From Lysobacter sp. CFH 32150 (GTDB taxonomy: Bacteria; Pseudomonadota; Gammaproteobacteria; Xanthomonadales; Xanthomonadaceae): 64,000 nt of DNA. Below, one piece after another: positions 21,594 through 27,165 of the stretch. Where the stretch lies: positions 148,940 through 212,939 of the forward strand of contig NZ_JALDWJ010000007.1 of NCBI RefSeq assembly GCF_022758295.1, written 5' to 3'. The number at the start of each line of letters is the position of its first letter. Position 1 is the first letter of the stretch. The notes below the pieces were generated by a model, which ran no database searches, was not told where the DNA came from, and was given only the letters and a program-made list of their open reading frames with translations. A program made the position numbers and the translations under genes.

Positions 21594-21914
21594 GCGCGTG
21601 ATCCGGGGGAGTGGCAGGGGCTGCGGGCAGGCTTTGCAATCAAAACCTCCCCGCGGAGCCGCAAAAGTATAGCAGTCGGCCATTTTCAGCGGCAACCGCC
21701 GAAAGGCGTGAATTTCCATACGGGGTGCACCTGTAGGCGTATGCGCGCCGGCGCTGCACGCATTCGTGCACGGAACCTTTGCTCGCCCTCCGGGTCAGTC
21801 CTGCGGAGGCCTGCTTCTACTTCCTCGTCGGTCCTCGTGGCAGGTCTTCGGAAGCCCCGGCGTTCGCGTCGGGGCTTCGCTTTTTGCAGGAGCTGTGTGG
21901 GGGGCTATGGCATT

Positions 21915-22013: not shown

Positions 22014-23789
22014 TCAGCCCTTCTTCCTGGGCACGTACAGGTCGGTGATCGTGCCTTCGTAGACCTCGGCCGCCATGCCGACGGATTCGCTCAACGTCGG
22101 ATGCGGATGGATGGTGTGGCCGATGTCGGCGGCTTCGGCGCCCATCTCGATCGCGAGCCCGATTTCACTGATCAGGTCGCCGGCATGCGGGCCGACGATG
22201 CCACCACCGATCACGCGATGCGTGGCTTCGTCGAAGATCAACTTGGTGAAACCCTCGGTGCGCCCGATGCCGATCGCGCGGCCACTCGCCGCCCACGGGA
22301 ACTTGCCTACGCCGTAGTGCAGGCCTTTGGCCTTCGCCTCGGTTTCGGTGACACCAACCCATGCGATCTCCGGATCGGTGAATGCGACCGACGGAACTAC
22401 CCGCGCAACCCATTCGCGCTTCTGACCAGCCGCGACTTCGGCCGCGAGATGGCCTTCATGCGTTGCCTTGTGCGCGAGCATCGGCTGTCCGACCAGATCG
22501 CCGATCGCGAAGATGTGCGGCACGTTGGTGCGCATCTGCCGGTTCACCGGGATCAGGCCGCGCTCGGTCACGTTGACGCCAGCCTTATCGGCGGCGAGCT
22601 TGCCACCGTTCGCGGCACGACCAACTGCGACCAGCACGCGGTCGAACAATTTCGTTTCTGGAATGCTGGCACCGTCGAAAGCGACGCTGATGCCATCCTT
22701 CTGCGCCTTGGCTTCGACGACCTTGGTTTTCAGGTGGATCGCGACGCCCTGCTTCTTCAGGCGATCGGCGAGCGGCTTGACCAGGTCGAGGTCGGCGCCG
22801 GGCATCAGCTGATCCATCAATTCGACGACGGTCACTGCACTGCCGAGTGCGCGGAACACCGTCGCCATCTCCAAACCGATGATGCCACCGCCGACGACGA
22901 GCAGCTTGTTCGGAATCTCGGCGAGCTCAAGCGCGTCGGTGGAATCCATCACGCGCGCATCGTCCCAGGGGAAGCCCGGCAACTTCACCGGCTGGCTGCC
23001 GGCGGCGATGATGCATTGCTCGAAACGCAGCAGTTTCTTCCCGTCGGCGCCGTCGATCTCGATTTCATTCGCCGACACGAACTGCGCCACACCCGTCGCC
23101 ACGCGCACCTTGCGCTGCTTGGCCATGCCGGTCAGGCCCTTGGTCAGCTGGCCGACGACCTTGCCCTTGTAGTCGCGCAACTTGTCGAGCGTGATCTTCG
23201 GTTTGCCGAAGTCGACACCGTAGTCGCTGGCGTGCGCGGCTTCATCGATCACCGCAGCGGCATGCAGCAACGCCTTCGACGGAATGCAGCCGACGTTGAG
23301 ACAGACGCCGCCGAGTTGCGGGAAGCGCTCGACCAGTACCGTGTCGAGACCGAGGTCGGCCGCACGGAACGCGGCGCTGTAACCACCCGGACCGGCGCCG
23401 ATCACGACGATGCGGCATTCGATATCGGCCTTGCGGCCGCTGGCTGACGCAGCCTTGGGCGTGGGCGCTGCGGGTTGTGCGGCAGGCGGCGCAGCGGGTG
23501 TCGGCGCTGCAGGCTTCGGTTCGGCCTTTGCCACAGGCGCCACGCCCGCATCCACGCTTTCGACGATCGCCACGACGCTGCCTTCCGACAGCTTGTCGCC
23601 GACCTTGACCTTCAATTCCTTGACCACGCCCGCCACCGACGACGGCACTTCCATCGTCGCCTTGTCCGATTCCAGCGTGACCAGGCCCTGGTCCTTCGCC
23701 ACGGTGTCGCCGACCGCGACCAGTACTTCGATCACTGGCACATCGTCGTAGCCACCGATATCGGGAACCTTGACTTCGATCATGGGCAT
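22014..23789 (-). CDS. lpdA: Dihydrolipoyl dehydrogenase (E3) with an N-terminal lipoyl domain.
   Basis: Lipoyl motif [11 protein letters not shown]; FAD and disulfide motif [13 protein letters not shown]; C-terminal HAHPTLSE. Start reset to MPMIEVKV. The longer ORF N-terminus is Pro/Arg-rich and implausible. Confidence 0.9.
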
Positions 23790-23814: not shown

Positions 23815-24564
23815 TTAGGGCTTGGGCGGGTTGGCGGTTTGGGACGACACGGTGTCCTTGGGTGCGTCCGGATTGGTCCAGTCGTCACCCCAGTCGAGAT
23901 CCTTGGCAACAGTGGGGAAATCGGCCGCGAGCGTTGCCGACAATTCGTCGGTGAGCGTTTGCAGCTGCTCCCAACGGCGCTCGCGCTTTCCCGCGCGCTC
24001 GTCGCTGGCTTCGATCAACAGCTCGACCTGCTCGCGCATCTTCGCGAAGGCGCCGCATCGCGGCGGCGGACCACTCGCGCGCAGGCTGCCGATCGCGAAT
24101 GTCCAGGCTTCGGTGTCGTCGAACATCGCGGGCGCGCCTACCGGCGAGGCGACCGACAGCGCGCGATACCAGACATCCAGCAATTCCGTCGCCACGGCGG
24201 CCGGGATCGGCACATCGTTGATCTCCGGTTCCTGCTCGACCCGCAACACCAGGTTGTCGCCTTTCCAGTAGCGCACGCGCTTGTCGGCTTCTACATAGCG
24301 CAGCGTCCAGTCATCGCCACTGGCGATGCCCGCGGCGCTCGGAATCAGCATGAGCCCGCTTTCGTTGTCTTTTTCCGGCAGGCGCGTGAGCGAGAGCGCC
24401 GGCGGCTCGGTGAGTCCGGCCGAGAACAACTGCTCCACGGCCGCGCCCCAGTTCTGCCCCGCCACTGGCCACCCACGGCCCAGCGTGTTGGCGCAGGAGC
24501 CCTTTTGCGCGCTGGCCAGCGGGGCCGCCAGCAATGCCACGATCAACAACAAAACCCGTCTCAT
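23815..24564 (-). CDS. Hypothetical secreted protein (249 aa) with an N-terminal signal peptide.
   Basis: [20 protein letters not shown] has Sec-signal character. No recognisable catalytic motif. Confidence 0.55.
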
Positions 24565-24576
24565 CTCAACATCACC

Positions 24577-24702
24577 TTAGAGCAGTACGCGGCGCATATC
24601 CGCGAGGAGCTGCGCAAGATACGCGGTGAATCGCGCCGCCGCTGCGCCGTCGATCACACGGTGGTCGTAGCTCAGCGACAGCGGCAGGATCAGGCATGCC
24701 AT
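24577..24702 (-). pseudogene. Orphan 3' fragment of aceF: a 41-codon [44 protein letters not shown], duplicating the E2 C-terminus.
   Basis: Its protein matches the C-terminus of the intact aceF at 25599 almost exactly (one G/A substitution). Nucleotides 24604-24695 match 25626-25717 at 91/92. Confidence 0.6.
24604..24695. repeat. Direct repeat copy B (92 bp). It matches copy A at 25626-25717 with one mismatch and flanks the lepB-like insertion.
   Basis: Read by direct alignment: gaggagctgcgcaagatacgcggtgaa[t/a]cgcgccgccgctgcgccgtcgatcacacggtggtcgtagctcagcgacagcggcaggatcaggc. Confidence 0.8.
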
Positions 24703-24711
24703 GGGGCGTCC

Positions 24712-25602
24712 TTAACGTGCATGCGCGGCGGACAGCGAGCCGATCCGCGCAGTTTCGATGGTGTGCGTGATAGGGGAATACGAGAACCAGATGGCTTTCA
24801 CCTTGCCGCGCAAGGCTGAGACAGGGACAGGTCCCTGGAATCGACTGTCTGCGGCATTGAGGCGGTTGTCGCCCATCAAGTAAACCTCGTCGGACCCGAG
24901 TTTCGCGGAGGGAAACGGAATTGCTTCGACAGGAATCGGATTGCCTTCAATTTGGATGTAGGGCTCATCGAGGACGTTGCCATCGATGGCGGCGCGGTTG
25001 TCGCGCGTCACGATCGTCTCGCCGGGCAGGCCGATGATGCGCGCAATCCACATCTGTTCTGGATGTTCCGCGGGCACGTAAGTCACGATCTCGCCGCGAC
25101 GCAACGCAGTCCGCTCACCGGAACGCGCGTCGACGGTAACGAAGTCGCCTAGTCGCAGCGTTGGCTGCATGCTGGTCGATGGGATTCGATACGTTTCGTA
25201 GCCGAACACTTCCCCGCGATGCCTGACAAACCAGTCCGCGAAAAGCCAGTTGACCAGGACCACGCTGGCGATCGCCAGCCAGACATAGTGGTACCAGCGG
25301 TTGTACCAACGCGGCGGCGTGCCAACGGGCATCGCGCGCGCGAAACGGAACGCGAGCACCAGGGCGGCGATGGCCGCCAAGATCAGGAGCGCCAGAAGCC
25401 CGTAATACCCCAACAGCGATGCCGGCAGGCCGAGCCGACCACCCACCAGCATCAGCAACGGTGCGATCGCCACGAACACAAAGCCCCACGCCATCCTCCG
25501 CACGTAGGCGAAGCCGACCACGGGCAGGAAGAACGTCAGCAGCAGCGCCAGTGCTCCGCTGCGGCGCGAGAGCCCCCCAGGACTTGCGACCGCTTCGTTC
25601 AC
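24712..25602 (-). CDS. Signal peptidase I (S26 family) homologue. The catalytic serine box is present, but the general-base lysine is replaced by alanine.
   Basis: S26 boxes IPSTSMQPTL, RRGEIVTYVP, ARIIGLPGE and GDNRLNAADSRFQGPVPV. The position equivalent to E. coli K145 / B. subtilis K83 (YVKRIIGLPGD) reads WIARIIGLPGE. The GTG start overlaps the aceF stop (GTGA). Only the 3' third of the 786-aa track ORF 24712..27072 is real. Confidence 0.75.
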   Translation of the reverse strand: MNEAVASPGGLSRRSGALALLLTFFLPVVGFAYVRRMAWGFVFVAIAPLLMLVGGRLGLPASLLGYYGLLALLILAAIAALVLAFRFARAMPVGTPPRWYNRWYHYVWLAIASVVLVNWLFADWFVRHRGEVFGYETYRIPSTSMQPTLRLGDFVTVDARSGERTALRRGEIVTYVPAEHPEQMWIARIIGLPGETIVTRDNRAAIDGNVLDEPYIQIEGNPIPVEAIPFPSAKLGSDEVYLMGDNRLNAADSRFQGPVPVSALRGKVKAIWFSYSPITHTIETARIGSLSAAHAR

Positions 25603-27008
25603 AACAACACCCGGCGCATGTCGCCGAGGAGCTGCGCAAGATACGCGGTGAAACGCGCCGCCGCTGCGCCGTCGATCACACGGTGGTCGTAGCTCAGCGA
25701 CAGCGGCAGGATCAGGCGCGGGGCGAACTGCTTGCCATCCCACACCGGGCGGATGGCCGACTTCGATACGCCGAGGATGGCGACTTCGGGCGCATTGACG
25801 ATCGGCGTGAACTTGGTGCCGCCGATACCGCCGAGCGAGCTGATCGAGAAGCAGCCGCCGCTCATCTCCGCCGGGCCCAGCTTGCCTTCGCGCGCCTTGG
25901 CGGCGAGCTCGCCGGTTTCCCTGGCGATCTCGATCACACCCTTCTGGTCTACGTCGCGCACCACGGGCACGACCAGGCCATTCGGCGTGTCGGCGGCGAA
26001 GCCGATATGGAAGTACTTCTTCAGCGTGAGGTTCTCGCCGCTGGCGTCGAGCGATGCGTTGAAGTTCGGGAATTTCTGCAGCGCGGCGACGGACGCCTTC
26101 ATCAGGAAGGCGAGCATGGTGAGCTTGATGCCCGCCTTTTCGTTTTCCTTGTTGAGGGCGACCCGCAGTGATTCCAGTTCGGTGATGTCGGCATCGTCGT
26201 GCTGGGTGACGTGCGGGATCATCGCCCAGTTGCGCGCAAGGTTGGCGCCGCTGAGTTTCTGGATGCGCGTGAGCGGTTTGGTTTCGATCGGGCCGAACTT
26301 GGCGAAGTCGACCTTGGGCCACGGCAGCAGGTTCAACCCACCACCACCCGCCACCGGCGCAGCGCCGGCAACCACGCCACTGGCCAGTGCATCCTTGACG
26401 AAGCGCTGCACGTCTTCCTTGCCGATGCGACCGCCGCGCTCGCTGCCCTTGACCTGGGCGAGATCGACGCCGAGTTCGCGCGCGAACATGCGCACGGCGG
26501 GACTGGCGTAAGGCACTTTGTCTGGCAAGAGTTCGTCGGCGGTGAACGCGATGGGCGGCGTACGCGGCGGTGCGGCTTCGGGATCGACACCGGGCTTGCC
26601 GTCGAGCGTGGTGGGCGCCTCGATGGAGCGCTGCGCCAGTTTGTCGGGTTGCGCCGCGACGATGGCCGGCTCGACCTTCGCACCGGTTTCCGCAGTTGCT
26701 GTCGTCGCCTGCGGCGCCACTGGTTCCGCCCGTTGCGGGGCTGCCGGCTTGGCTTCGGCAGCGGCCGCGCTGGATTCGATCACTGCGACCACGCTGCCTT
26801 CCGACAACTTGTCGCCGACCTTGACCTTCAATTCCTTGATCACGCCCGCGAACGGCGCCGGCACTTCCATCGTCGCCTTGTCCGACTCCAGCGTGACCAG
26901 GCCCTGGTCCTGCTGCACCGTGTCGCCGACCGCGACCAGCAGTTCGATCACAGGCACGTCGTCGTAGCCGCCGATGTCGGGGACGCGCGCTTCCTTGAGT
27001 TCTGCCAT
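25599..27008 (-). CDS. aceF: Dihydrolipoamide acetyltransferase (PDH E2) with a single lipoyl domain.
   Basis: Lipoyl motif [11 protein letters not shown], an E3-binding domain, and the catalytic motif [12 protein letters not shown]. Start reset to MAELKEARVPDIGG. Confidence 0.9.
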   Translation of the reverse strand: MAELKEARVPDIGGYDDVPVIELLVAVGDTVQQDQGLVTLESDKATMEVPAPFAGVIKELKVKVGDKLSEGSVVAVIESSAAAAEAKPAAPQRAEPVAPQATTATAETGAKVEPAIVAAQPDKLAQRSIEAPTTLDGKPGVDPEAAPPRTPPIAFTADELLPDKVPYASPAVRMFARELGVDLAQVKGSERGGRIGKEDVQRFVKDALASGVVAGAAPVAGGGGLNLLPWPKVDFAKFGPIETKPLTRIQKLSGANLARNWAMIPHVTQHDDADITELESLRVALNKENEKAGIKLTMLAFLMKASVAALQKFPNFNASLDASGENLTLKKYFHIGFAADTPNGLVVPVVRDVDQKGVIEIARETGELAAKAREGKLGPAEMSGGCFSISSLGGIGGTKFTPIVNAPEVAILGVSKSAIRPVWDGKQFAPRLILPLSLSYDHRVIDGAAAARFTAYLAQLLGDMRRVLL

Positions 27009-27165
27009 GGGGCTCAACCGTGCTGGAACAGGACCGCCATTGTCGCCGCCAGCGCGTGCGCACGCCAAGCACAAAAAAACTCCCGCGGTGCGCGGGAGTG
27101 GGGAATACGCCATTGCAGGCGTGGGGATAGTTTCTGGAGATACCAACCCGCGATCGTTCGCGGGA

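Follow-up and report, generated by a model that had tools for sequence, protein, structure and literature searches.

A signal peptidase I homolog without the catalytic lysine, encoded between aceF and lpdA in Lysobacter and its relatives, as a likely pseudo-peptidase

In a 64-kb stretch of the genome of Lysobacter sp. CFH 32150 (64,000 nucleotides, all of which we refer to as the window), a minus-strand gene at 24712..25602 encodes a signal peptidase I-like protein of family S26 and lies between aceF and lpdA, the genes for the E2 and E3 components of pyruvate dehydrogenase (PDH). We think it reasonably likely that this protein is a catalytically dead, periplasm-facing pseudo-signal peptidase, which probably still binds peptides and which is cotranslated with PDH E2. 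Inactive S26 homologs are already known; the present one belongs to an apparently undescribed subfamily that has a distinctive membrane domain and in which the catalytic dyad has been broken repeatedly, and in one Lysobacterales clade its gene has a fixed site in the PDH operon.

Active site and fold of the S26 protein

The gene consists of 296 codons plus a TAA stop and begins with GTG, and its translation runs to 296 amino acids (aa) with zero internal stops. The product matches Pfam PF10502 (Peptidase_S26) at 1.8e-28, and its score for the NCBIfam equivalog TIGR02227 (sigpep_I_bact, "signal peptidase I") is 99.9 bits, where the cutoff is 47. We aligned it with HMMER to the E. coli LepB crystal chains 1b12, 1kn9, and 1t7d, having checked the LepB numbering. 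A sequence-only reading of this DNA had claimed that every S26 box is recognizable and that alanine replaces the lysine of the signal peptidase lysine box, and the alignment bore out both statements. Boxes B to E align with the LepB chains, with IPSTSMQPTL opposite IPSGSMMPTL, WIARIIGLPGE opposite YIKRAVGLPGD, and MGDNRLNAADSRFQG opposite MGDNRDNSADSRYWG. The nucleophile, LepB Ser90, is kept as Ser144 (codon AGC, 25171..25173, minus strand), while the position of the general base, LepB Lys145, is occupied by Ala187 (codon GCG, 25042..25044, minus strand).

The catalytic defect goes further than that earlier account. The serine by which LepB positions Lys145, Ser278, is also replaced, by Ala250 (24853..24855, minus strand; context GDNRLNAADSR), as judged from the same alignment. 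The equivalents of Gly272, Asp280, and Arg282 are present as G244, D252, and R254 and are invariant in the orthologous clade described below. In LepB, Ser90 and Lys145 form the catalytic dyad of signal peptidase I, with Lys145 as the essential general base, Ser278 stabilizes Lys145, and Gly272 gives it room (PMC4049620). With both the general base and its positioning serine gone, Ser/Lys peptidase function would be lost, and by analogy with this established mechanism we strongly infer that the protein is inactive as a peptidase.

Loss of cleavage need not entail loss of binding. We mapped the LepB S1/S3 pocket positions by hand from the box alignment, and all of them are hydrophobic in the window protein (Y138, I140, M145, L149, V155, W185, and I186). 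Since these positions stay hydrophobic, it is plausible that the protein binds peptides without cleaving them.

The product can be divided into an N-terminal membrane domain (residues 1-130; 25213..25602, minus strand), delimited by AlphaFold2 helices, conservation, and charge counts, and an S26 beta-domain (residues 131-296; 24715..25212, minus strand), which contains boxes B to E and a small cap region and is predicted to be periplasmic. The AlphaFold2 model, computed with the family alignment as input, had a mean predicted local distance difference test score of 86 and a predicted template modeling score of 0.79. Helices are predicted at residues 16-25, 27-33, 37-56, 63-90, and 103-133, with the beta-domain following; the topology of residues 16-33 is ambiguous, and they could span the membrane or form a reentrant hairpin. 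When the model was searched with Foldseek, the top match was E. coli LepB (E value, 1.6e-9), and the inactive S. pyogenes protein SipA (4n31) was matched as well, with a template modeling score of 0.73 and a root mean square deviation of 3.3 A over 138 columns.

The positively charged loop at residues 86-104 bears an invariant WYNRWYHY motif. Mean counts of lysine plus arginine are 3.6 to 4.5 in the loop ahead of the last membrane helix, and there are almost none in the loop at 57-62. By the positive-inside rule as applied to this predicted arrangement, loop 86-104 should be cytoplasmic and the S26 domain periplasmic, as it is in LepB. Pfam gave no match to the N-terminal domain of the window protein; in other family members it gave borderline matches to DUF6677, DUF5683, and TM2, all domains of unknown function.

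The nr entry for the identical protein, titled "signal peptidase I [Lysobacter sp. CFH 32150]," is annotated as 206 aa from the internal Met91. Because residues 1-90 (25332-25602, minus strand) are conserved across all orthologs, as is a GTG or ATG start placed over the aceF stop codon, this public start is probably too short. Within the 64-kb window, tblastn with an E. coli LepB sequence, the window protein itself, and a pair of generic S26 proteins as queries found this gene only and no second or canonical lepB.

Dyad states and selection in the clade and its subfamily

A search of 5.8 billion proteins recovered about 20 full-length orthologs of 286 to 295 aa with 46 to 58% identity, those with names coming from Luteimonas and Noviluteimonas/Lysobacter, and a genome scan added further orthologs in Noviluteimonas gilva and in one Lysobacterales metagenome-assembled genome. 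We counted dyad states in 23 clade sequences, the window protein included. Alanine occupies the lysine position in 13 of them, 12 of which have the nucleophile Ser and one of which (P0002) has Asn; another 8 have the lysine and carry Ala at the serine position, and the remaining two (P0014 and P0017) have an intact Ser/Lys pair. The Lys-to-Ala replacement is common to 12 orthologs, and it is therefore no sequencing error. The Ser278 equivalent follows the lysine: it is Ser in every Lys-holding member of the clade and Ala or Val in most of the Lys-to-Ala members. The nucleophile differs even between sisters, being Ser in P0014 and Ala in P0016 (a pair with 100% bootstrap support), and likewise Ser in P0017 and Ala in P0021/L007.

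Neighbor-joining trees of the clade had internal bootstraps of 16 to 35% and did not separate a single loss of the lysine from multiple losses or a regain. Three alignment columns distinguish the Lys-holding from the Lys-to-Ala orthologs, namely 215 (Y/W), 256 (Q/T), and 274 (S/H) in query positions. Column 256 is the sole one of these visible in distant PDH-embedded relatives, where the Lys-to-Ala-group residue Q is found in two of four (P0122 and P0123), and given the Q in these two relatives the Lys-holding group may be the derived one. A distant member of 325 aa (P0022) has Thr, Ala, and His at the Ser88, Ser90, and Lys145 positions; the histidine is of the endoplasmic reticulum (ER) type, and the nucleophile Ser is absent.

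When a profile built from the clade was run against 1.84 billion cluster representatives (50% identity clusters), at least 804 clusters matched at an E value of 1e-30 or lower, most of them over nearly the whole profile (about 10-283) and with lengths of about 270 to 300 aa. These proteins constitute a subfamily with three parts, all of which the window protein has: a hydrophobic, multihelix membrane domain at the N terminus, a basic loop in which the motif (W/P)YN(R/K)WY occurs, and an S26 domain whose cap is small. The subfamily is large, mostly metagenomic, and apparently undescribed, and our literature search found no description of it. A protein search of plasmids gave domain-level lepB matches alone and none that was full-length, and a second metagenome scan, run with the clade alignment and a generic box D pattern, returned ordinary S26 genes only (27 to 39% identity), leaving the clade no larger.

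We took a census of the dyad in the top 148 of the 804 representatives, reading residues from a keep-length MAFFT addition in which the printed boxes look well aligned. The 148 are the top-scoring matches to a profile of mixed dyad states, and because the two dyad columns add little to scores of 160 to 300 bits we expect the resulting bias to be small. Ser and Lys are both present in 78 of the 148, Ser only in 35, Lys only in 31, and neither in 4. The control set comprised 95 ordinary S26 proteins, found in the first search, in which this N-terminal domain is absent, and 89 of these have the canonical dyad (Fisher's test against the 78 of 148 in the subfamily, p ~1e-12). Ser-only members have R, Q, S, H, G, A, M, E, F, or V at the lysine position, with His in 4 of the 148 representatives, and Lys-only members have A, G, T, or N at the serine position. 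The rest of the active site appears unaffected: the equivalents of M91, R146, G272, D273, R275, D280, S281, and R282 are equally conserved in noncanonical and canonical members. At the Ser278-equivalent position, Ser is found in 108 of 109 members with the lysine versus 31 of 39 members without it. Members that have lost both dyad residues are rare (4 of the 70 noncanonical representatives; odds ratio, 0.29; p=0.027). This rarity, taken with the intact scaffold, fits inactivation that was selected with the binding geometry preserved, although the same alignments would also leave room for noncanonical chemistry.

Several observations weigh against our preferred reading of a dead protein that still binds peptides. 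The I144-equivalent pocket residue is T, N, or Q in some orthologs, and this makes the argument from a conserved binding groove weaker. The S26 gene evolves quickly, with nonsynonymous divergence (dN) of 0.20 to 0.44 in genome pairs for which the catalytic domain of aceF gives 0.02 to 0.12, which indicates weak constraint. Outside the PDH-embedded clade the gene contexts of the family are unrelated to each other and thus give no functional clue. Finally, the nucleophile Ser144 is kept after loss of the lysine, and in the sister group the lysine is kept after loss of the serine, which could reflect residual or altered chemistry.

The fast evolution and the variable pocket residue, along with the repeated Ser/Ala flips at the nucleophile described above, could be accommodated if the protein were a relic in decay, now functionless, of an accessory signal peptidase that had once been active, surviving only by virtue of its essential operon location and its overlap with aceF. 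We consider a relic unlikely, as several features speak against decay. The open reading frame (ORF) is intact and of similar length in all copies, with no frameshift, stop, or truncation in the 23 orthologs or in three outgroup loci, and the start overlap is conserved along with the length. A 21-sequence clade alignment contains 46 invariant columns, some of them in the membrane domain and far from the aceF overlap; pairwise omega (the ratio of dN to synonymous divergence, dS) is about 0.2 to 0.4 in both domains, with dS near saturation; and the same architecture is maintained across the 804 or more clusters. Among the Lys-to-Ala sequences, 12 of 13 retain Ser144, a level of conservation reached by just 32% of the S26-domain columns. 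Judged from these alignments, this is a real protein under weak to moderate purifying selection rather than a decaying pseudogene.

A different possibility is that the protein is still an active peptidase with a noncanonical mechanism, in which Ser144 would act with a base supplied by the substrate or with another residue or water, and in which the Lys-only sisters would use the Ser88 equivalent as a shifted nucleophile. The persistence of Ser144 in 12 of the 13 Lys-to-Ala orthologs despite about 50% sequence divergence favors such a mechanism, and so do the full conservation of the remaining scaffold and the rarity of double dyad loss. The Ser88 equivalent, for its part, is Ser in 27 of 31 Lys-only versus 46 of 78 canonical members (among P0121-P0268; p=0.006), a difference that could mean a shifted nucleophile. 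However, Lys145 is essential in LepB (PMC4049620), and Ser278 has been lost along with the lysine. Moreover, the replacements of the lysine are chemically heterogeneous across the family and show no sign of a new base, and the ortholog alignment has no Lys or His column specific to the Lys-to-Ala members, so that no alternative base is visible in register. We therefore regard continued activity of this kind as quite improbable. Where the sequence-only reading had left a choice between a pseudo-peptidase and a variant with an alternative base, the first option gains from a dyad that is labile in clade and family on a conserved scaffold, and the second is without positive support.

Position in the pyruvate dehydrogenase operon

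The S26 gene begins within the last codons of aceF (25599..27008, minus strand; probable start MAELKEARVPD), its GTG start and the aceF TGA stop sharing two bases in GTGA at 25599-25602. Downstream lies lpdA, which encodes PDH E3 with an N-terminal lipoyl domain (22014..23789, minus strand, from the probable start). The order aceF-S26-lpdA recurs at each ortholog locus with sufficient flank, and a GTGA or ATGA overlap with aceF is present in 10 of 10 ortholog coding sequences, window included, from Lysobacter, Luteimonas, and Noviluteimonas. The next-nearest relatives (P0121, P0122, and P0125) are likewise situated between aceF and lpdA, the 4-nucleotide (nt) overlap being found in P0121 only and the genes of P0122 and P0125 starting about 10 nt past the aceF stop. 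Given that the order is conserved even in these distant relatives, the position of the S26 gene between aceF and lpdA is, on this comparison of loci, ancestral for the clade. When the literature was searched for S26 genes lodged between these two genes, nothing relevant was returned.

Strong terminator-like hairpins are located upstream of aceF (27079-27099) and after lpdA (21851-21878), and we found no convincing terminator between the two genes. The sequence between the hairpins, comprising aceF, the S26 gene, the reading frame ORF249 (see below), and lpdA, is probably one transcription unit. Because the aceF overlap is conserved and no convincing terminator interrupts aceF and lpdA, we infer that the S26 gene is expressed. 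Its translational coupling to aceF had been proposed from the DNA of this one genome, and the 10 overlaps lend it wider support.

The idea that the gene had arrived by an insertion event fared otherwise. A recent, private acquisition at the aceF 3' end of this genome would find its support in a direct repeat that flanks the S26 gene: the core repeat, 24587-24695 versus 25609-25717, is 109 nt long and 95% identical. The downstream copy amounts to about the last 117 nt of aceF and forms a 41-codon ORF (24577..24702, minus strand), recognized by repeat comparison, which reproduces the E2 C-terminus save for one Gly-to-Ala change, has its own TAA stop, and differs synonymously in its last four codons. 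A complete aceF terminus of this sort would fit Campbell-type or homology-facilitated integration. Yet all ortholog loci have the S26 gene at the same site with the same 4-nt overlap and all are without the duplication, which was absent in the nine relative loci scanned; the more distant relatives also have the gene between aceF and lpdA; and the base composition shows no anomaly. Insertion of a cargo consisting of the aceF fragment and ORF249 at the variable S26-lpdA junction explains the duplication equally well. What is private to this genome is the aceF 3' duplication and ORF249 only, both of which lie downstream of the S26 gene. We accordingly find a private acquisition very improbable, and we reject a private-insertion origin of the S26 gene on the grounds of synteny.

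ORF249 (23815..24564, minus strand) is a genome-specific cargo gene between the S26 gene and lpdA. It encodes a 249-aa protein predicted to be secreted, with a signal-peptide-like N terminus and an ASA|Q site, and among the loci examined it is present in this genome only; a metagenome contig scan found no relatives of it. Its first seven codons (24543-24564, minus strand; ATG AGA CGG GTT TTG TTG TTG, or MRRVLLL) match the aceF end (25601-25622, minus strand; ATG CGC CGG GTG TTG TTG TGA, or MRRVLL*) at 18 of 22 nt. The aceF terminus may thus be present a third time, at the start of ORF249, as a recombination scar, or the match could be due to chance. The same junction varies among relatives. 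It holds a 951-aa FG-GAP repeat protein in three loci (L002, L006, and L013) and a 41-aa lpdA-derived fragment with an MscS channel in another (L008), and it is cargo-free and about 10 nt long in four (L001, L007, L010, and L012).

Elsewhere in the operon, the lipoyl domain of lpdA (~23550-23789, minus strand) and that of aceF (~26769-27008, minus strand) share 186 of 210 nucleotides (88.6% identity), and relatives show the same repeat between the two genes at 81 to 84%. This similarity suggests gene conversion between the E2 and E3 lipoyl domains.

Relation to other signal peptidase homologs

The window protein resembles the S26A enzymes, such as LepB and B. subtilis SipS, in its fold, its boxes B to E, its Ser nucleophile, its Gly272 and Asp280/Arg282 equivalents, the placement of a membrane anchor ahead of the beta-domain, and a score beyond the TIGR02227 equivalog cutoff. 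It differs from LepB in having Ala for both Lys145 and Ser278, in having a multihelix N-terminal domain and WYNRWY loop where LepB has one or two transmembrane segments, in its small cap domain, and in its PDH operon location as opposed to the usual lepA-lepB-rnc context. The S26B enzymes of the ER or SipW type (Ser/His) are also S26 proteins without the lysine, although they have His at that position and the window protein has Ala.

According to our literature search, few inactive signal peptidase homologs are known, these being Gram-positive (SipA and SpsA) and having roles that are still unclear; a search for Gram-negative, nonpeptidase S26 homologs returned nothing relevant. In S. pyogenes SipA (LepA), a pilus assembly factor, the binding cleft is conserved and the catalytic residues are replaced, and chaperone-like peptide binding without cleavage has been proposed (PMC4049620). 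Like SipA, the window protein has the S26 fold but no functional Ser/Lys dyad. However, SipA has both dyad residues replaced (Asp/Gly) and its Gly272 and Ser278 positions remodeled, whereas the window protein has changed only at Lys and Ser278, and SipA is a Gram-positive protein with a single transmembrane segment encoded in a pilus/sortase gene cluster rather than between aceF and lpdA. S. aureus SpsA is an inactive paralog of SpsB in which both catalytic residues are absent; it showed no peptidase activity in assays, and a phenotype has been reported for it (PMC12414704). It is similar as an S26 homolog with a defective dyad, yet it too is Gram-positive and has a single transmembrane segment, its gene adjoins the active spsB, and there is no family with recurrent single-residue losses around it. 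Unlike SipA and SpsA, the subfamily described here usually loses one dyad residue and keeps the rest of the catalytic scaffold intact.

The mechanism we propose for the likely pseudo-peptidase builds on these comparisons. Loss of a single residue, from either member of the dyad, would have occurred many times within the subfamily, and the window protein retains the nucleophilic serine together with the scaffold of boxes B to E and hydrophobic residues at the S1/S3 pocket positions. Such a protein could bind peptides or proteins without cleaving them, on the outer side of the inner membrane, acting as a "natural substrate trap" or in a chaperone-like manner, as proposed for SipA. In the Lysobacterales clade its synthesis would proceed from the pyruvate dehydrogenase transcript, aceF-lpdA, through translational coupling.

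Automatic annotation, the NCBI record included, labels all of these proteins "signal peptidase I," which is probably a misnomer in many cases. With its Ser-only, Lys-only, and intact variants, the subfamily is a natural series in which the origin of a pseudo-enzyme can be studied, and the PDH-embedded clade includes culturable hosts, Noviluteimonas gilva and N. lactosilytica. A more ambitious possibility, which we hold to be doubtful, is that single-residue inactivation has been selected repeatedly and makes substrate-trap receptors or chaperones for exported proteins, or else proteins with noncanonical catalysis (through a substrate-assisted Ser or a shifted Ser88 equivalent). If this were true, the stoichiometric cotranslation with PDH E2 would hint at an unrecognized link between central carbon metabolism and the handling of envelope proteins.

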